A stretch of DNA of 40,491 nucleotides from positions 1 to 40,491 of the forward strand of contig JANMQV010000215.1 of NCBI GenBank assembly GCA_031370645.1, in the 5' to 3' direction. The translations under genes and the position numbers were made by a program. The notes below the pieces were generated by a model. That model was not told where the DNA came from and ran no database searches. It saw only the letters and a program-made list of their open reading frames with translations. Of this stretch, positions 4,315 through 23,747 are shown piece after piece. Numbering within the stretch: position 1 is the first letter of the stretch; each line of letters begins with the position of its first letter. Source of the stretch: Candidatus Eiseniibacteriota bacterium (lineage in GTDB: Bacteria > Eisenbacteria > RBG-16-71-46 > SZUA-252).

Positions 4315-6021
<1,707 letters not shown>

Positions 6022-12329: not shown

Positions 12330-12776
12330 TTATTTCTTGGTCTTCTTGGCCTTCGCCTTCGCGGGCTTGGCCTGGCCGGACTTCGCCTTCGCGCGCGCCT
12401 TCGCCTTCTTGTCGCTCCTCTTCGCCACAGCCTTCTTCTTCGCGGCCGGCTTCTTCTTGGCGGCCTTCTTCTTGGCGGCCGGCTTCTTCTCCGCCTTCGG
12501 CTTGGCCTCGACCTTCGGACGGACGGGACGGAGCGCGTCCGGCGCATGCTTCGCCATCAGCACCGAAACCGACTCCGACGGCTTGGCGCCGTTCAGGATC
12601 CACTTGGCGAAATGGTCCGAGTCGATTTTGAAGGTCGCCGGATCCGTCAGCGGATCGTAGTAGCCGAGCTGTTCGATGAAGCGTCCGTCGCGCGGATAAC
12701 GCGAATCGGCGACGACGACGCGGTAGAACGGCCGGCCCTTGGACCCCGTTCGCTTGAATCGAATGACGACAGCCAT
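12330..12776 (-). CDS. rpsP: 30S ribosomal protein S16 with Lys/Ala-rich C-terminal extension
   Basis: [34 protein letters not shown]; about 60-aa PAAKKK-type tail. Confidence 0.97.
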
Positions 12777-15632: not shown

Positions 15633-18403
15633 TCTCCGGTCGCCGAGTTCTTCTCCCGCGCTACTTCGGCGGGAGTTCCCGCGGCCACCAGCCTCCCGCC
15701 CGCAGCGCCGCCGTCCGGCCCCAGCTCCACCAGCCAGTCGCACGACGCTAGGAAGTCGAGGTTGTGCTCGACGGCGATCACCGTTCCGCCCCGTCGCGTC
15801 AGTTCGTGCAGCACGCGGAGGAGCACCGCGACGTCGCGCCGGTGAAGACCGACCGTCGGCTCGTCGAGAATGTAGAGCGTGTCGGGCGCGCTTCGCTCCG
15901 CGAGTTCGCGGGCCAGCTTCAGCCGCTGCGTCTCCCCTCCGCTCAGCGTGGTGAGCGGCTGGCCGAGCCGCAAGTAGCCGAGCCCGACCCGCTCCAAGAC
16001 CCAGAGCGGCTCCTGGATTTCGGGCTCACCGCCGAAGACGCGGATCGCCTCCTCGATCGTCTTCCCGAGAAGTTCGTCCATGGAGAGGCCGTGGACGCGA
16101 ACCTCGAGGACCTCGGGGCGGTAGCGCTTCCCGCCGCACGCCTCGCACGGAATCGAGAGGTCGGCCAGGAAGTACATCTCGACCTTCGTGACGCCGGCCC
16201 CCTCGCAGACGTCGCAACGCCCGCCGGCCACGTTGAAGGAGAACGTGCCGGGCGTGTACTTCCGTTCCCGGGCGAGCGGAGCGCGCGCCCACCGCTCCCG
16301 GATCCGGTCGAACGCTTTCACGAAGGTGGCGGGGTTCGACCGCTGCGTTCTTCCGACCGGGCTCTGATCGACGAGCGCGATTCGGGAGGCGCCCTCGAGG
16401 CCGGTCACCTCGTCGTGCGCGCCCGGCACCGGCGCCTCTTCCCCCGCCGCGCGGGCGGCTGCCCGATAGAGAACGTCCTCGACGAGCGTCGACTTCCCCG
16501 ATCCCGATACGCCGCAGACACCGGTCAACGCGCCGATCGGAAAGCGCGCCGTGACGTTTTTCAGATTGTGCTCACGGGCGCCGCGCACCTCGATCCATCC
16601 GGCCGCCCGTTTCGGATCCGGGAGACGGAAGCGCGAGTCTCGCGCCGGGAATTCGACCGACACGCGTCTCCCCGGCCATGTCTCGATCGGCCCTTCGTGG
16701 AGGAGTTCCCCCCCGCGCTCCCCGGCCCCGGGGCCGAGCTCGATGATCCATTCCGCCGCGTCGATCACGTCGGGGTCGTGCTCCACCACGAGGAGCGTGT
16801 TCCCCCGTTCGCGGAGGCGGAGCAGGACGCGGATCAACCGGTCGGTGTCGCGCGGATGGAGCCCGACCGTCGGCTCGTCGAGCACGTAGAGCGTGTGGCT
16901 CAGGCTTCCGCCGAGCGCGTTCGCCAGTTCGATCCGCTGCGCTTCCCCTCCGGAGAGCGACTTCGACTGTCGGTCGAGCGTCAGGTAGTCGAGGCCCGTC
17001 TCGCCGAGGTAGTCGAGCCGTCCGCGAAGTTCGGCGACGATCGGTGCCGCGACTTCGGTCCGGACAGGATCGAGGTCGAGCGCGACAACGAAGGCGCGAA
17101 GTTCCCCGACGGTCATTGCCGCAAGATCGGCGACGTTCTTCCCTCCCACGTAGACCTCCAGCGCCTCCGGCTTGAGCCGGATGCCGCGACAGGCGCCGCA
17201 GATCACCTGCTCCTGATAGCGCTTCACGAGGAATCGCGCGCTCAGTTTGTAGGCCTTCTCCTTCTGGCGCTCGAGGAAGGGGAATACGCCGCGGAACCCG
17301 GGCGCGCCATGGAGGAGGATTTCCTGATGCTCCGGCTTGAGCGCCTTGAAGGGGCGGTCGAGAGGAATGCCGTGCTTATCGGCGACGGCTTTCAGTTTCG
17401 GAAGGAAGTGCGCCCTCCAGGAGTTCGCCCATGGATCGAGAGCGCCGTTATTGACGCTCTTCTCCGGATGGGGAACGACTCGCTCGCGCGTGAACGTGAG
17501 GACGTTTCCGAAACCGCGGCACTCGGGGCAGGCGCCGTAAGGGCTGTTGAAGGAGAAGAGCTGGGGGCGCGGCTCCGGAAACGTCCGCCCGCACCCTTCG
17601 CAGACGCGACCGTCGGCGTAGGTCGCGCGTTCGCCCGACGCGCGTTCCACCGTGACGCGGCCGTCCCCTTCCCGCCACGCGTGCTCCAGCGCTTCGCGAA
17701 GCCGCATCCGCTGCTCGGGCGAGGGGCGGAGCCGATCGACGAGAATCTCGATCGGGGCGCGGAGTTTCGGCGGCGGCGGTTCGTCGAGGCGAAGCCAGCC
17801 GTCGGTGCCGCGAGCGCGAGCGCGGAGAAATCCACGCGAAAGGGCACGCGCCCAGAGCGCCGCCGGCGATTCCCCGGGCCGCGCGGCGAAGACGATCCAA
17901 ACGGAGACTTCCTCGCCGCCCGTCCGGAGCACCGCTTCCAGGACGGAATCGAGGCTGTGCCGCGGGACCGCGTGGCCGCACCGGCCGCAGCGCGTCTCGC
18001 CCACGCGCGCGAGGAGGAGGCGGAGGTAGTCGGCGAGCTCCGTCACCGTTCCGACCGTGGAGCGTCCCGTCTGCGCGGCCGCTCCCTGGCGAATGGCGAT
18101 CGCCGGGGCGAGCCCTTCGAGGAGGTCGTAGTCGGGGCGCGGCAAGCGATCGAGGAACTGCTTCGCGTAGGTGGAGACGCACTCCACGTAGCGCCGCTGT
18201 CCCTCGGCGTAGATCGTGTCGAAGGCGAGCGACGACTTCCCCGATCCGCTCACCCCGGTCACCACCGTCAGGGCGGCGCGCGGGAAGGAGACGTCGATAT
18301 TTCGGAGATTGTTCTGGCGGGCGCCCTGGACACGGACGCGCGGCTTTAGCGCGATGGCGGCCAGATCGGCGGAGGCGTCGGGAGGCGGAGAGCGGTCGGG
18401 CAC
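15602..18403 (-). CDS. uvrA: Excinuclease ABC subunit A (divergent, possibly second paralog)
   Basis: Two GVSGSGKS Walker A motifs, [13 protein letters not shown] twice, LDEPTVGLH twice, CxxC zinc modules. Confidence 0.93.
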
Positions 18404-18409
18404 GCGCCC

Positions 18410-18415
18410 ATCATA
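18410..18415 (-). promoter_or_regulatory. Putative -10 element for leaderless uvrA
   Basis: TATGAT followed by 6 nt and the GTG at 18403; no SD; no convincing -35. Confidence 0.45.
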
Positions 18416-18419
18416 ACGC

Positions 18420-18449
18420 GAGGCCGCCCGGCATGCACCGGGCGGCCTC
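18420..18449 (-). terminator. Perfect 12-bp GC hairpin downstream of the micropeptide ORF
   Basis: GAGGCCGCCCGG-N6-CCGGGCGGCCTC; U-tract weak, so may be a stabilising stem rather than an intrinsic terminator. Confidence 0.6.
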
Positions 18450-18455
18450 TGAGGA

Positions 18456-18470
18456 CGTGCCCAATCCGCG
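18456..18470 (+). repeat. 15-bp direct repeat CGTGCCCAATCCGCG, copy 2
   Basis: Exact match to 14367-14381; 5 nt past the micropeptide stop codon. Confidence 0.85.
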
Positions 18471-18475
18471 TTAAA

Positions 18476-18526
18476 CTACTTCTTCTTAGCAGCCTTCTTC
18501 TTAGCAGCCTTCTTCTTCGCCGGCAT
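18476..18526 (-). CDS. 16-aa lysine-rich micropeptide [16 protein letters not shown]
   Basis: Below ORF-track cutoff. GGGGAGGTG SD 6 nt before ATG; ATG CCG GCG AAG AAG AAG (GCT GCT AAG AAG AAG)x2 TAG; followed by hairpin. Confidence 0.7.
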   Translation of the reverse strand: MPAKKKAAKKKAAKKK

Positions 18527-18562
18527 GTACGTCACCTCCCCTCGCGTTGATTTGTTCGCCGT

Positions 18563-18946
18563 TCAGCCCGCGGCATTGCCCCCGGGCCCAATCAGCCCCA
18601 CCACCTCATCCACCATCACCGTGAGATCGAACGGCTTTCTGAGGTATCGATCGACCTTCAGTCGCTTCGCTTCCGTCTTCACGTCGGGCGTCTCGTAGGC
18701 CGTCATGAGAATCAGTTTCGACGGCACCGCCTGCTCGCGCAGGCGCCTGATCATTCCGATTCCGCTCTCCCCCGGGAGGCGGTTGTCGAGGACGATCAGA
18801 TCGAACGAGGGACTCGCGAACGCTCGCCGATCCGCATCTTCCGCGGATCCGGCCGTCGCGATCCGATAACCCGACTCACGAAGGACGTTGGAGAGTGTGC
18901 GAACGAGCAACTGCTCGTCGTCCACGATGAGGACCGACTTCGACAA
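18563..18946 (-). CDS. Single-domain response regulator (receiver only)
   Basis: VLIVDDE, DLIVLDNRLPGESG, ILMTAY, YLRKPF; TTG start with GGAGGAGG SD. Confidence 0.9.
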   Translation of the reverse strand: MSKSVLIVDDEQLLVRTLSNVLRESGYRIATAGSAEDADRRAFASPSFDLIVLDNRLPGESGIGMIRRLREQAVPSKLILMTAYETPDVKTEAKRLKVDRYLRKPFDLTVMVDEVVGLIGPGGNAAG

Positions 18947-18992: not shown

Positions 18993-19009
18993 AGCAGGAA
19001 CGGTGCCAA
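18993..19009 (-). promoter_or_regulatory. sigma54 (-24/-12) promoter
   Basis: TTGGCACCGTTCCTGCT: GG and GC separated by exactly 10 nt; about 46 nt upstream of the receiver gene. Confidence 0.8.
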
Positions 19010-19133: not shown

Positions 19134-19228
19134 TGTCAGGAGATTGGACAGCGCGGATCGATCGCGCGCGTTTCTCGCAGGTGAATGCGCGATGTGTGAA
19201 GAAACGCGACATGTCGAGAAAGACAACA
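19134..19228. promoter_or_regulatory. Putative enhancer (UAS) boxes for a sigma54 activator
   Basis: Three TGT-N11-ACA 17-mers: 19134-19150 TGTCAGGAGATTGGACA, 19195-19211 TGTGAAGAAACGCGACA, 19212-19228 TGTCGAGAAAGACAACA. Confidence 0.55.
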
Positions 19229-19277: not shown

Positions 19278-21230
19278 ATGATCGGAACGCGACTCGCTCA
19301 CTACCTGCTTCAAGAAGAGATTGGCGCCGGCGGAATGGGCGTCGTCTATCGCGCGCGCGACGAGCGACTCGAGCGCGACGTCGCGGTGAAGGTGCTCCCG
19401 CCCGGCATCCTCGACGAAACCGCGCGGGCGCGGTTCCGCCGCGAAGCGATGGCACTCTCGAGACTGAATCATCCCCACATCGGCATGATCCACGACTTTG
19501 GGAGCGATCAAGGCACCGACTTCCTCGTGATGGAGCTCGTGCGCGGTCGCACGCTCCGCGAGCGGCTTCGCGAAGGACCGCTTTCGCTGGAGGAAGCGGT
19601 GGAGACGGCGATCGCCGTGGCCGAAGCGCTCGAGGAGGCACACGAGCAGGGCGTGATTCATCGCGACCTGAAGCCGGAGAACATCCTCCTCACGACGAAG
19701 GGCTGGGTAAAGGTGCTCGACTTCGGGCTCGCGTCGCTACGGCCGGCGTCGGGCGCCACCGTGACCACGCAAACTCTGACGGCGGCGCATCTCCTGACCG
19801 GCACGCTCCCCTACATGGCGCCCGAGCAACTCCTCGGAAAGCCGGCGGAGGCGCGGACCGACCTCTACGCGCTCGGCGTCCTGATGTACGAGTTGGCGAC
19901 GGGGACACGGCCGTTCGAGGCGGACGTGCAGGCGGCGCTCATCGGCGAGATCCTCCACAAGACGGCGGCCGCGCCGTCGTCGCGAAGGACGGGGATCCCG
20001 ATTTGGTTCGACGGCATCGTGGCGCGATGTCTCGAGAAGGAAACGGTCCTTAGGTTCGAAGACGCCGCGTCCTTGAAGCAGGCGTTGAAGGATGGGGTGC
20101 GCGGGGGGCCGGGTCCTTCCGCGCCGGTTTGGACTGCCTCCGCGGAAGCGGGCGCCGGCGCGGCCGGGTCGGGCCCGCCTTCCTCCTCCGCGAGTGTCGG
20201 CTTCGCCACGCCACCGGCCGTGCCGGCGACGCCCATCTCCGGCTTCTCCGCCGGCGCGGCGAGCCAGCAGGTGAATCCGGAGGCGTACGACGCGGTCATC
20301 CGGGGACGCCAGATCATCGGCCGCCGAACCGATGAGAGCATGCGGCGCGGCATCGAGTACATCCGCCGCGCTATCGAGATCGATCCGCTCTACCCGCCGG
20401 CGTACGCCGCGTTGGCGACCGCGTACGACCTGATGGGATTCTTCGGCATGGCGGCGCCGGCCGACTGCTTCCCTCGCGCACGGGTCGCCGCCTCGCGCGC
20501 CATCGATCTCGACTCGAAGTGGGCGCCCGCCTACTCGGCGCTGGCGTACGTCGCCCTCTACTATGAGTGGGACCTCCGGAAGTCGGAGGAGCTCTTCCGG
20601 AAGTGCATCGAGCTCGACCCGCAATACCCCATCGGGCCGCTCTGGTACGCCAACCTCCTCCTCTTCGAGCGCCGATTCGAGGAAGCGGCCCAGACCATCA
20701 ACCGCGCGCAGGCGCTCGACCCGCTCTCCTCCATCGTCACGATGAGCCACGGCTGGACCGCCATGTTTCAAGGGAAGTACGAGTGGGCCCTGCGGGAGTA
20801 CTCGAAGGCGACGGACTTTGATCCGGACTTCCACGTCGCCCACTGGATGGCCTCGTGGTGCCTCACGGCGCTCGGGCGGCACGATGAGGCGGTGGCCTCC
20901 GTCACGAGGGCGATCGAGACCTCGAAGGGACTCCTCATCTGCTACCCCACCTTGGCGCGAGCGCACGCGCTGGCCGGAAGAAAGGACGAGGCGCGCCGGG
21001 TGTTGGCGGAGCTGGAGGCGAAATCGCCCGCCCGGTACGTGGAGCCGCTGGAAGTGGCTCTGGGGTACGAGGCGTTGGGCGAGCGTGATATCGCGTTTAC
21101 GTGGTTCGACCGCGCGGTGGAAGCGAGATCGCGCTGGCTGGTGGCGCTGGGGGTGGATCCGCGGTTCGATTCGCTTCGTGAGGATCCCAGGTTCGGCGCG
21201 TTGAAGAAGAAGGTGGGCGTCTTCGAGTAG
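19278..21230 (+). CDS. Hanks-type Ser/Thr protein kinase with C-terminal TPR repeats
   Basis: GAGGMGVVY, VAVK, HRDLKPEN, DFGLA, GTLPYMAPE; TPR-like C-terminus ending DPRFDSLREDPRF; TACAAT 8 nt before ATG. Confidence 0.94.
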   Translation: MIGTRLAHYLLQEEIGAGGMGVVYRARDERLERDVAVKVLPPGILDETARARFRREAMALSRLNHPHIGMIHDFGSDQGTDFLVMELVRGRTLRERLREGPLSLEEAVETAIAVAEALEEAHEQGVIHRDLKPENILLTTKGWVKVLDFGLASLRPASGATVTTQTLTAAHLLTGTLPYMAPEQLLGKPAEARTDLYALGVLMYELATGTRPFEADVQAALIGEILHKTAAAPSSRRTGIPIWFDGIVARCLEKETVLRFEDAASLKQALKDGVRGGPGPSAPVWTASAEAGAGAAGSGPPSSSASVGFATPPAVPATPISGFSAGAASQQVNPEAYDAVIRGRQIIGRRTDESMRRGIEYIRRAIEIDPLYPPAYAALATAYDLMGFFGMAAPADCFPRARVAASRAIDLDSKWAPAYSALAYVALYYEWDLRKSEELFRKCIELDPQYPIGPLWYANLLLFERRFEEAAQTINRAQALDPLSSIVTMSHGWTAMFQGKYEWALREYSKATDFDPDFHVAHWMASWCLTALGRHDEAVASVTRAIETSKGLLICYPTLARAHALAGRKDEARRVLAELEAKSPARYVEPLEVALGYEALGERDIAFTWFDRAVEARSRWLVALGVDPRFDSLREDPRFGALKKKVGVFE

Positions 21231-21233
21231 CCG

Positions 21234-22640
21234 TTACCGTCCGACTTCGAGCGTCCCTCGAATGGCGGCGATCCGCTTCAACCGCTCGATGAGACTCTGC
21301 CGCGAAATCCCGAGCACCTTGGCCGCCTGCGAGCGATTCCCGCTCGTCGCTTCGAGCACCTTCAAGATGTGCTCCTGCTCGATCTCCGACAGCGTGGGGA
21401 GATTGATGTCGTTCTCCCCGCGCGCCACCATCGCGTCCCGGAGCGCGCGTGGCACCGACTCGTACTGGGCGATCATCTCGGCCGGCAGGTAGTCCTCCCG
21501 CAGCCTCTCGTCGTCCTCCAGCAGCACGACCCGCTCCAGCAAATTCCGCAACTCCCGGACGTTCCCCGGCCAGCGGTAGACGCGGACGATTGCCTCCACG
21601 TCGTCCGTCATCCCGACGAAGCGCTTCCGGAACTTCTCGCTGTAGTAGTGGAGGAAGTGCCGCATGAGGAGCAGAACGTCGTCGCCCCGCTCGCGGAGCG
21701 GCGGCATGACGACCGAGACGACCTTGAGCCGGTAATAGAGATCGTGCCGGAAGCGCCCCTCGCGGACCGCCGTTTCGAGGTCGCGGTTCGTCGCGGCGAC
21801 GATCCGAAGTTCGACCGAGAGGTCGGCCGCGCCGCCGACGCGCTTGAAGGTCCGATCCTCGATGAAGCGGAGGAGTTTCGCCTGGGTGTTGACCGGCAGA
21901 TCGCCGACTTCATCGAGGAAGAGTGTTCCCTGATCGGCGAGCTCCACGAGGCCCCGCTTCGGCTCCCGCGCGTCGGTGAAGGCGCCGCGCTCGTGTCCGA
22001 AAAGCTCGTTCTCCAGCAACTGTTCCTGGAACGTGGAGCAGTTGAGCGCGAGGAACGGGGCGTCCCGCCGCGCACTCTCGAAGTGGAGCGCCCGGGCGAC
22101 GAGTTCCTTGCCGGTGCCGCTCTCCCCCTCGATCAGCACGGTCGTCGCCTCGCTTTGCGCGACCTTGTAGGTGATCTCCCAGGCGCGGCGGATCGCGGGC
22201 GACTCACCGACGATCTTCGTCTTCAAGAACGCCTCGAGTTCCGTGCGCCGGAAGGCATCGAGCTGCGTCTCGCGAATGAGCCCCGCCTTCAGCCGCTCCA
22301 TCGCGAGGAGCATCTCGTGCATCTCGTAGGGCTTCTTGAGGAAGTCGGTCGCCCCTTGGCGCATCGCCTCGACCGCCGTGGGGAGGTCTCCAAAAGCCGT
22401 GATCACCACGACCTTCAGGTCGGGGGCAAGCGTCTTCAGGCGCGGGAGGAGTTCGAGGCCGCTCCCATCGGGGAAGCGAAGGTCGAGGATCAGCGCGTGA
22501 GGAGGATCGCGGCGGACCGAGTCGAGCACTTCGGCCGCGGTGCCGACCGCATCCACGTCGTACCCCTCGGCGCTCAGGACCTTCACGAGCGACTTCCGAA
22601 TCAGTTCTTCGTCGTCGGCGATCCGGACGCGGAGCTTCAT
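21234..22640 (-). CDS. NtrC-family sigma54-dependent response regulator (REC-AAA+-HTH)
   Basis: GESGTGKE, ELFGHERGAFTDA, LFLDEVG, WPGNVREL, C-terminal Fis-type HTH. Confidence 0.96.
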   Translation of the reverse strand: MKLRVRIADDEELIRKSLVKVLSAEGYDVDAVGTAAEVLDSVRRDPPHALILDLRFPDGSGLELLPRLKTLAPDLKVVVITAFGDLPTAVEAMRQGATDFLKKPYEMHEMLLAMERLKAGLIRETQLDAFRRTELEAFLKTKIVGESPAIRRAWEITYKVAQSEATTVLIEGESGTGKELVARALHFESARRDAPFLALNCSTFQEQLLENELFGHERGAFTDAREPKRGLVELADQGTLFLDEVGDLPVNTQAKLLRFIEDRTFKRVGGAADLSVELRIVAATNRDLETAVREGRFRHDLYYRLKVVSVVMPPLRERGDDVLLLMRHFLHYYSEKFRKRFVGMTDDVEAIVRVYRWPGNVRELRNLLERVVLLEDDERLREDYLPAEMIAQYESVPRALRDAMVARGENDINLPTLSEIEQEHILKVLEATSGNRSQAAKVLGISRQSLIERLKRIAAIRGTLEVGR

Positions 22641-22643
22641 GCG

Positions 22644-23747
22644 TTACTTCTCCCGCTCGTCGCGCGCTTCTTCCGACTCCGGAGGAGCGAGGAGCGCGGG
22701 GAGGCTGAACTTGAACGCCGCCCCCTGCGTGAGATTCCGCGCGGTCAGATTTCCGCCGTGCTCGCGCGCAATCTGCTGCGAGATGGAGAGCCCGAGCCCC
22801 GTTCCCATGGAGCGGGTCGTGAAGAAGGGATCGAAGATCTTCTCCTTCACGTCCTCCGGAATCCCCGGTCCCGAGTCCGCCACGATCACGTCGACGTAGG
22901 CCTTCGTGGAGCGCGTTCGCCGGAGACCCGTGCTGATCCGGAGCGTTCCCCCTTGCGGCATCGCCTGGATGGCGTTGATAACCAGGTTCAAGACCACTTG
23001 GTGCGCCATGTCGGGGTCGACCGCCACGGGTGGGAGCCCCTCGTCGAAGTCGGGTTCCACCTCCACGCCCGAGTCCTTCAGCCGGCGGCCGAGATTGTCG
23101 AGCGCCTTCGCGACCACCTCGTGCATGTCGGTCGGGGTCGGCTTCGCGGCCTGGGGGCGCGCGAACAAAAGAAGGTCGGTGATGATCTGCTCGATCCGGT
23201 CGAGTTCCTTGAGAACATCTTGAAGATCGTCGCGGCGAGAGTCGCCGGCCCGGAGTTTCGAGGCGACGAACTGGACGGTGGTCCGAACACCGGTGAGTGG
23301 ATTTCGAATCTCGTGCGCGACGCGCGCCGAGAGTTCGCCGAGCGAGATGAGGCGCTCGGTATTTCGGAAGATTTCCTCTTCGGAGTCGGCGTCGACCAAG
23401 TCCTCGATGCGGACGAGGAGAGCGCCGTCGTCGCCGAGCGAGGAGGCGGAGTAGCGCATCAAGACCTCGCGGTCCCCCACCTTGCCGCGCACCTCTCGCG
23501 TGGAGCGTCCCGGTTCTCCCTTCGAGCCGCGCTCCGGCAGATACCAGCGCTCCGTCTCCGGCTCGAAGATCTCGCCGAGGGGCTTCCCCACGACATCATC
23601 GGCGGCCACGCCCCACCCTTTGGCGAGCGTCTCGTTGACCGCGACGATGCGCCGGTCCTCGTCGATCACGAGGAGCCCCGTGTCGAGCGCGTCGAGCACG
23701 CGAACCAGGGAGTCGCGAGCGACGTCAGGGGCTTCTGCGCGCGTCAT
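22644..23747 (-). CDS. Cytoplasmic PAS-domain histidine kinase (NtrB-like)
   Basis: N-terminal PAS-like segment, AHEIRNPL, NLVINAIQA, DSGPGI, FDPFFTT, GTGLGL; no TM segment; GGAGGT SD. Confidence 0.94.
   Translation of the reverse strand: MTRAEAPDVARDSLVRVLDALDTGLLVIDEDRRIVAVNETLAKGWGVAADDVVGKPLGEIFEPETERWYLPERGSKGEPGRSTREVRGKVGDREVLMRYSASSLGDDGALLVRIEDLVDADSEEEIFRNTERLISLGELSARVAHEIRNPLTGVRTTVQFVASKLRAGDSRRDDLQDVLKELDRIEQIITDLLLFARPQAAKPTPTDMHEVVAKALDNLGRRLKDSGVEVEPDFDEGLPPVAVDPDMAHQVVLNLVINAIQAMPQGGTLRISTGLRRTRSTKAYVDVIVADSGPGIPEDVKEKIFDPFFTTRSMGTGLGLSISQQIAREHGGNLTARNLTQGAAFKFSLPALLAPPESEEARDEREK

Follow-up and report, generated by a model that had tools for sequence, protein, structure and literature searches.

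A 16-codon lysine-pentad gene with a predicted sigma-54 circuit and a conserved 3' RNA motif in Eisenbacteria

The described proteins that come closest to the element reported here are the chlamydial Hc2 (hctB) and the Bordetella BpH1. According to the available part of the published account, these are made up of consecutive pentamers of basic and small residues (mainly alanine, also valine, threonine and proline), their size varies with the number of lysine-rich pentamers while the frame is kept, and Hc2 binds DNA as well as RNA (PMC2848022). The C-terminal KPAA domain of Pseudomonas AlgP and PhaF, like the C-terminal tail of histone H1, is also rich in lysine and alanine, disordered and repeat-based; AlgP KPAA-repeat peptides are known to bind DNA and AlgP is located on polyphosphate granules under nitrogen starvation, as given in the accessible portion of that report (PMC9239181). 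In the current analysis we have studied a small open reading frame (sORF) of 16 codons that encodes three lysine pentads, in contig JANMQV010000215.1 of the Candidatus Eiseniibacteriota bacterium assembly GCA_031370645.1. The whole stretch of 40,491 nucleotides (nt) that was analysed is referred to as the window. Judged from its sequence the sORF is a minimal, free-standing version of the lysine-repeat proteins of the bacterial H1/Hc2-like kind, with a predicted circuit of its own and a new conserved RNA motif.

Two other classes of known systems bear on this locus. Very small basic ribosomal peptides (bS22, bL37, bTHX and eL41) are of mixed arginine and lysine composition, non-repeating, constitutive and of fixed length. 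The sORF resembles them in size (16-30 residues), in extreme basic charge and in being usually overlooked by gene callers, and differs from them in being a variable-length pentad repeat under a predicted inducible promoter. The other class comprises the AtoSC/ZraSR-type two-component circuits, whose zraP and ato outputs serve as the comparison for the regulatory part of the locus.

A conserved micro-gene in two families of Eisenbacteria

The module comprises the following elements.

18541..18532, minus strand: Shine-Dalgarno (SD) sequence GGGGAGGTGA, with the core GGAGGTGA
18526..18476, minus strand: sORF of 16 codons, ATG to TAG, encoding three pentads of KKK and two small residues
18467..18452, minus strand: 3' motif GGATTGGGCACGTCCT, between the stop codon and the hairpin, containing the anti-SD-like CACGTCCT
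18449..18420, minus strand: GC hairpin GAGGCCGCCCGG-tgcatg-CCGGGCGGCCTC, with 12 perfect pairs

A first-pass annotation of the sequence had noted a peptide with complete expression signals, and all of them have been verified: the near-perfect SD, the spacing of 6 nt (ACGTAC) between GGGGAGGTG and the ATG, nine lysines among 16 residues, the TAG stop and the perfect 12-bp hairpin. The SD core is complementary to the 3' tail of the 16S rRNA of a member of the same family (G018; ...GGATCACCTCCTTTCT) and is unchanged throughout an alignment of 20 family loci. The sORF is the last frame ahead of the hairpin, which is likely to be the terminator of a predicted transcript that also carries an upstream receiver gene. 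Among the 20 loci the sequence of the hairpin drifts while the pairing is kept, with compensatory double changes at five of the 12 pairs. In the window no U-tract follows (four U in the next 10 nt), and in several relatives a T-run lies 3' of the hairpin, with runs of six to eight T in, for example, L009, L015 and L039. A simple promoter and terminator scan of the window called neither the hairpin nor any sigma-70 promoter; the hairpin escaped the scan because the T-run is missing in the window.

The distribution of the module was analysed in 206 Eisenbacteria genomes of 18 families with the pattern 'AAGAAGAAG-stop-3..33 nt-GGCACGTCCT'. The pattern is matched once per genome in 115 of the 206, all belonging to two families, namely the window's own family f1 (36 of 40 genomes, and the window's own genome) and family f9 (78 of 89 genomes); one genome (G006) gave two matches, one of them 61 nt from a contig start. 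None of the 77 genomes of the other 16 families was matched, and the reversed pattern gave a single match over the same set. The module found in this way consists of a perfect SD, a lysine-rich frame of 11-27 codons, the invariant 3' motif (GGAYYKGGCACGTCCT) and the GC hairpin, and it occurs in two forms.

Type A (the window's family): motif GGATTGGGCACGTCCT; peptide usually of 15-25 residues; directly behind a receiver gene in 42 of 44 loci
Type B (family f9): motif GGACCTGGCACGTCCT; usual peptide a 22-mer; no receiver gene, own promoter

The two type-A loci that do not follow a receiver gene are a contig end and a genome (G004) described below. Over 185,579 species genomes the pattern was matched in 118 stretches; among the 80 of these that were listed, 73 carry the full module and seven are chance matches, and the module-bearing records listed are nearly all labelled Eisenbacteria or 'uncultured bacterium'. 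Four complete modules (L087, L090, L109 and L117) lie on contigs of metagenome-assembled genomes labelled Hyphomicrobiales, Saccharimonadaceae, Omnitrophota and Methylomirabilota, respectively, and the L087 and L109 contigs carry the receiver gene too; these contigs are probably mis-binned or mislabelled.

The first-pass annotation had called for relatives to be searched for the SD, the ATG, the frame and frame-preserving variation, and the SD, a start and the frame are conserved at the module loci, with variation that preserves the frame. A DNA search matched 38 of 41 relatives, and 23 of the 24 other genomes of the window's family align through the sORF and the hairpin. Each of the 20 aligned family loci has GGAGGTGA, a start, M[PA][AG]KKKxxKKKxxKKK and a stop, the frame being of 16 codons in 18 loci, of 15 in one (with a GTG start) and of 25 in one. 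In 95 of 96 module loci an SD is followed by an in-frame start 2-9 nt downstream, and the exception is cut by a contig end. The 55 unique ORF sequences yield 33 peptides of 11-27 residues; none of the 55 has an internal stop and the stops used are TAA or TAG. The peptides are composed only of K, A, T, G, P, V, S, M and R, and one peptide is encoded by up to five distinct nucleotide sequences. Insertions and deletions involve whole codons, the Lys triplets are fixed, and the x positions vary (AA, AG, SA, SS, TA, TS, GA, GT) with the spacer residues staying small (A/G/S/T/V). Nei-Gojobori-type counts gave ratios of non-synonymous to synonymous differences (pN/pS) of 0.19 for type A (19 unique 16-codon frames) and of 0.39 and 0.34 for type B (8 and 18 unique frames), which come from short, related sequences and are indicative only, a weakness of this line of support.

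By these signatures the 16-codon frame is a real, conserved and unannotated gene of Eisenbacteria that is predicted to be translated, in agreement with the initial claim of a micro-gene that codes for a peptide and has all its expression signals. The idea that an intergenic spacer simply happens to contain an open frame, to which the mere 16 codons and the low complexity would lend themselves, deserves practically no weight: the frame is conserved, together with SD, start and stop, in 115 genomes from two families, which refutes it. Its omission by gene callers, as foreseen in the first reading, is also probable, the exact 22-, 25- and 30-residue relatives being absent from about 15 billion predicted proteins. 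Three long forms are likewise absent from that collection, which for these may just reflect a different choice of start. In the literature outside supplementary files, no paper with the peptide strings was found and none joining Eisenbacteria with 'small protein'. The sORF is a well-supported example of a conserved gene in bacteria that is as short as 16 codons (11-27 among relatives) and is absent from standard annotation, and its clear regulatory context makes it directly testable.

The window's genome is a metagenome-assembled one (3.0 Mb, 66% GC, 247 contigs, 95% complete). It encodes 19 segments of 12 residues with at least six lysines, only two of which fall in frames shorter than 40 codons: the sORF and a 31-codon Arg/Lys-rich frame on contig C32 (plus strand), which resembles the small ribosomal protein bS22. 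The latter is the only other very short lysine-rich frame in this genome.

The unusual alanine codons reported initially have been confirmed. GCT accounts for four of the five alanine codons of the sORF and for 6.5% of 94,885 alanine codons in 1,903 ORFs of the window's genome filtered by third-position GC content (GC3). An interpretation of GCT as a mark of high expression was rejected, its share on the contig with rpoBC and ribosomal-protein genes being 7.1% as against 6.5% genome-wide. A read-through fusion of receiver and sORF was also considered. In the window the two genes share a reading frame, with a spacer of 36 nt and with one TGA and 12 sense codons between them (18527..18565); in L002 and L003, which are close relatives, the spacer measures 37 nt, so that the shared frame is not conserved, and the fusion was rejected.

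Longer homologues and the lysine-repeat proteins

Eight genomes of eight other families of the phylum have the same context of kinase, activator and receiver followed by a lysine-rich pentad-repeat ORF. These ORFs are of 13, 25, 30, at least 42, 96, about 100, about 100 and at least 172 codons, and all have a strong SD and a terminator hairpin. Three further lysine-rich matches in other families turned out to be unrelated genes. From the sequences the 16-mer belongs at the short extreme of a family that varies in length and keeps nothing constant but the lysine pentad, that is KKK with two of A/G/S/T/V, repeated two to five times in the short forms.

The syntenic homologue of 101 residues scores 27.8 bits against the Pfam family HC2 (PF07382; cut-off 40), 19.1 bits against the H1-like and 16.6 bits against the Hc2 family of NCBIfam (NF038052 and NF038053; cut-offs 80 and 135), so that all the scores stay under the curated cut-offs. 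The 16-mer itself is below the 20-residue minimum of the profile scan. By sequence, then, it is a non-member of the Hc2/H1-like families that shares their repeat logic, and the suggestion of an H1-like nature is backed indirectly, through the long pentad-repeat syntenic homologues that score weakly and below threshold.

The sORF is like Hc2 and BpH1 in its consecutive pentamers of basic and small residues and in the change of size by pentamer number with the frame kept (PMC2848022, in its available part). It is unlike Hc2 in having 16 residues with three lysines per pentamer and nothing else; Hc2, in that part of the account, is 165-237 residues long, carries two positive charges in each pentamer and has conserved flanks outside the repeats. 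The control by a two-component system and sigma-54 and the 3' RNA motif of the sORF have no counterpart in the same portion of the Hc2/BpH1 account (PMC2848022). With the C-terminal KPAA domain of AlgP and PhaF and the tail of histone H1 it shares the Lys/Ala-rich, disordered and repeat-based character (PMC9239181, as far as available). AlgP and PhaF are described there with a four-residue unit containing one lysine and a folded N-terminal domain, in a protein of 352 residues, unlike the free 16-mer with 56% lysine. These comparisons suggest that the lysine-pentad 'histone-tail' principle works as a free peptide, controlled by dose rather than by length.

Another lysine-rich region is encoded elsewhere in the window. 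A frame on the minus strand at 12330..12776 has a C-terminal tail of about 70 residues rich in lysine and alanine, and its DNA is the sole second match to the sORF within the genome. Its product is named from the N-terminal sequence and we take it to be ribosomal protein bS16; a KH-domain-like frame comes after it.

Predicted regulation and genomic neighbourhood

The first reading had placed the sORF last behind a sigma-54-type promoter. The features of the neighbourhood are as follows.

22644..23747, minus strand: sensor histidine kinase gene; best NCBIfam matches AtoS and ZraS, below the equivalog cut-offs
21234..22640, minus strand: gene of an NtrC-type sigma-54 activator (receiver, AAA+ and helix-turn-helix); Pfam Sigma54_activat 220 bits, Response_reg, HTH_8
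19150..19134, minus strand: palindrome TGTCCAATCTCCTGACA, candidate activator site, about 130 nt upstream of the promoter
19008..18993, minus strand: sigma-54-type promoter TGGCACcgttcCTGCT, GG and GC ten nt apart, upstream of the receiver gene
18946..18563, minus strand: single-domain receiver gene, 127 amino acids, TTG start; Pfam Response_reg 80.7 bits
15602..18403, minus strand: uvrA, GTG start at 18403; Pfam UvrA_DNA-bind, UvrA_inter and two ABC_tran

The consensus of sigma-54 promoters is TGGCAC-N5-TTGCW, with the -24 GG and the -12 GC ten nt apart, and TGGCACcgttcCTGCT has this GG/GC layout. Conservation bears out the placement: the GG-N10-GC promoter (the GGC...TGC columns) is kept in 20 of 20 aligned type-A upstream regions and in 50 of 50 aligned type-B regions, where it lies about 100-200 nt before the stand-alone sORF. 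The CTGTC...GACA columns are conserved further upstream, and the 20 type-A regions contain two TGTC-N9/10-GACA palindromes, the second further upstream. The genome encodes rpoN (Sigma54_DBD, 219.6 bits, contig C106), so that sigma-54, an AAA+ activator and conserved upstream candidate sites are all present. Activity of the promoter, its control by the neighbouring activator and binding of the activator at the TGTCCAATCTCCTGACA palindrome are predictions, and the receiver gene and the sORF are predicted to be co-transcribed.

The neighbour order was obtained by clustering of GC3-filtered ORFs at 73 loci. On the strand of the module, 63 of the 73 have an orthologue of the activator that ends about 430 nt before the sORF end, 45 have the sensor kinase gene upstream (as do 9 of 12 regions of other families), and 60 have uvrA about 160 nt downstream. 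The conserved order is histidine kinase, NtrC-type activator, sigma-54 promoter, receiver (in some families only), sORF, terminator and uvrA. Neither family f9 nor G004, a species of the window's genus, has the receiver gene. In the latter (L169, G004:C270, module at 5926..5941 on the minus strand) the palindromes, promoter, SD, sORF, motif and hairpin are intact. Since both f9 and G004 keep the module in the absence of the receiver, the sORF module and not the receiver is the constant output of the circuit.

The locus is like AtoSC/ZraSR-type circuits in the best matches of its kinase, in the architecture of the activator (receiver, AAA+ and HTH_8) and in the GG-N10-GC promoter directly downstream of the activator gene. 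It is unlike them in its output, a lysine-rich micro-peptide, and the kinase reaches 265 bits against an equivalog cut-off of 646 and is therefore no orthologue. A defined signalling output is thereby proposed for an uncultured phylum known almost only from ecological surveys; among 81 papers that name it, the 12 listed have titles pointing to ecology or genomics.

The position of uvrA brings up a leader-peptide attenuator, in which the speed of the ribosome over the nine Lys codons would sense the status of lysyl-tRNA or translation and set the read-through of the hairpin into uvrA. The Lys codons are clustered directly ahead of the hairpin, uvrA is next on the same strand in 60 of the 73 loci, and in the window the hairpin lacks a U-tract and the uvrA start is only 16 nt beyond it. 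The downstream gene is, however, unrelated to lysine and hence non-cognate, and no structure competing with the hairpin appears in the minimum free energy (MFE) fold or in the consensus fold, so that no overlapping antiterminator is predicted. A T-run follows the hairpin in relatives, a frame ranging from 11 to at least 172 codons fits a timing device poorly, and in G004 about 3.4 kb separate the module from uvrA. Most relatives moreover have a -10-like box between the hairpin and uvrA, some with a TTGACA, which suggests that uvrA has a promoter of its own. An attenuator is on this evidence very unlikely, and uvrA is regarded as a neighbour outside the predicted transcript.

In the window the -10-like box is TATGAT, just upstream of the uvrA GTG (18403..18420, minus strand), and relatives L001-L020 have TACAAT or TACTAT at the same place, some with a TTGACA box. 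From this arrangement the mRNA of uvrA may be leaderless, with a promoter that overlaps the terminator.

A Ser/Thr protein kinase with TPR repeats is encoded on the plus strand at 19278..21230, inserted between the activator gene and the sigma-54 promoter. This insertion is seen in only three type-A loci of the 73 and in G004; elsewhere the activator directly precedes the promoter.

The 3' motif and the proposed mode of action

The 3' motif is the most conserved element of the module, being identical in 20 of 20 family loci. Its 10-nt core GGCACGTCCT lies behind the stop codon in 115 of the 206 phylum genomes, a count in which the core is fixed by the search pattern itself. The analysis thus brings to light an invariant 16-nt RNA motif, which is missing in five of the nine loci of other families examined. 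The motif, as CACGUCCU, can pair with the SD: in the consensus fold there are seven pairs (GGGA-GUG with CAC-UCCU), and the MFE fold of the window also pairs the two (-62.6 kcal/mol, z = -2.9). At least five of the seven SD bases are paired with the motif in 40 of 81 unique modules (19 of 30 type A and 21 of 51 type B), as against 3.8% of motif-shuffled controls. An alternative is a local hairpin of 4 bp, GGAY/GUCC (in the window GGAU-7 nt-GUCC), with the conserved loop YKGGCAC; the MFE fold takes this shape in 4 of 30 modules of type A and in 21 of 51 of type B. On this modelling the 3' motif may fold back on the SD and gate translation. An invariant motif able to pair with the SD would also be compatible with the first-pass alternative that translation of the ORF regulates the 3' UTR.

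We consider it moderately probable, by analogy with the known repeat proteins, that the sORF encodes a lysine-pentad polycation that is induced through the two-component system and sigma-54 and binds nucleic acid or polyphosphate by charge, perhaps with an SD:anti-SD gate in cis. In this proposal the sensor kinase and the NtrC-type activator encoded just upstream would switch on the sigma-54 promoter. In the window's family the transcript would carry two genes, the single-domain receiver, which probably serves as a phosphate sink or for feedback, and then the sORF; in f9 it would carry the sORF alone. The perfect SD would drive the synthesis of a peptide of three lysine pentads, the shortest form of a lysine-rich pentad-repeat family of 13 to at least 172 residues predicted at the same locus across the phylum. 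Being a diffusible polycation (+9), the peptide could bind nucleoid DNA, RNA and ribosomes, or polyphosphate by charge, in the manner suggested for the repeat regions of Hc2, BpH1 and AlgP by the available parts of their accounts (PMC2848022, PMC9239181), while the invariant 3' motif might fold back on the SD to gate translation.

A bolder form of this proposal, in which the whole two-component and sigma-54 circuit serves one inducible polylysine-like micro-peptide whose mRNA is looped by the 3' anti-SD element, is tentative and rather doubtful. If true, it would provide the shortest natural condenser of the H1/Hc2 type, down to two or three pentads; when the PAS kinase sensed its signal, this peptide would act globally on nucleic acid or polyphosphate, compacting or shielding it. 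It would also bring SD, stop codon and terminator together into a new translational gate or re-initiation device for a micro-gene.

A different possibility is that the locus acts mainly at the RNA level or has a dual function, as a sigma-54-driven small regulatory RNA (sRNA) in which the motif is a seed or protein-binding site and the sORF is secondary, serving for example to keep the RNA covered by ribosomes; the predicted type-B transcript is about 220-295 nt. The conservation of the motif described above speaks for it, as do the excess of GCT and the near-invariant AAG codons, and the f9 unit stands alone with its own promoter and terminator, which is the usual layout of sRNA genes. It also draws on a sub-threshold Rfam match to sX6 (RF02225), a Xanthomonas sRNA, with a similar purine-rich GAAGAAG stretch followed by a GC-rich terminator (26.4 bits, E = 2.4e-4). 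Membership in sX6 was rejected, the gathering score being 40 and about 200 of the 342 model positions being skipped in the alignment; the Rfam matches to sX6, P6 and ftsZ-DE are terminator or purine-run artefacts, and neither the window nor eight related loci yield a match at or above the gathering score of any Rfam family. No target of such an RNA was found, no search aimed at one having been made. Such an RNA-level role is also opposed by the retention of SD, start, frame and stop in 95 of 96 loci with pN/pS below 1, and by the syntenic homologues, which are long ORFs in a set of other-family loci of which five in nine lack the motif. The binding motif of Hfq consists of ARN repeats, which (AAG)n would fit; no Hfq gene was found in the window's 95%-complete genome, which also tells against an sRNA, and binding of Hfq to (AAG)n was dropped. 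Taken together we find this explanation unlikely, if worth keeping in mind.

The size and charge of the peptide and its perfect SD would also suit an ultra-basic peptide associated with the ribosome, the 3' motif of its mRNA mimicking the 3' terminus of 16S rRNA for feedback control. In G018 the motif region matches, by eye, the last 20 nt of its own stretch from h45 to the anti-SD at 13 of 20 positions; seven of these 13 are, however, the anti-SD core required of any element that pairs with the SD, and the other six are unremarkable. Control by sigma-54 and a two-component system and the loss of the motif in several families are ill-suited to a core ribosomal component, the length reaches at least 172 residues, and the genome has a separate frame that we take to be bS22-like. 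We therefore judge a ribosomal peptide highly improbable.

Several observations count against the preferred reading, a charge-binding polycation with a possible SD gate. Profile searches of the 22-, 25- and 30-residue relatives assigned them to no protein family, and the member of 11 residues, with two pentads, may be too short for strong binding. The 3' motif is more conserved than the peptide and a polycation leaves this unexplained. As for the gate, the full-length predicted type-B transcripts pair the motif with the SD in only 6 of 49 MFE folds, the partner of the motif being local in 18, the leader in 8, the ORF in 4 and downstream sequence in 3, with the motif unpaired in 10; and the SD:motif helix is devoid of covariation in the loci found, both strands being invariant, as is also the case for GGAY/GUCC. 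Within the frame the Lys codons are AAG in 613 cases and AAA in 4, where constraint at the nucleotide level is inseparable from codon bias.

Public RNA data belong partly to the same side of the balance. Part of the stretch is present in 20 public runs, six of which are RNA libraries with small shares; these were available as contigs only, so that transcript ends, strand and level are not resolvable and uncovered parts carry no meaning. Four of the RNA contig sets mostly match only 18475..18527 and then diverge, and so derive from lysine-rich genes of other organisms; some RNA contigs over the lysine-rich stretch carry type-B-like SD sequences. One run from freshwater sediment has two contigs of about 120 nt over 18497..18614, from the 3' end of the receiver gene to the sORF, with six to seven differences, and a contig of 373 nt over the receiver gene. 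It gives a weak hint of co-transcription of receiver and sORF in a relative, tempered by the fact that DNA can contaminate RNA libraries.

The last point of this kind concerns the alanine codons. Over the 55 unique sORF sequences GCT makes up 75 of 271 alanine codons (28%), against the 6.5% of the window's genome, and this excess may reflect a constraint at the RNA level inside the frame.

GCT occurs most often as the codon that directly follows the first Lys triplet. In the consensus fold the CUGC at this place pairs with GCGG just before the motif, with two double changes.

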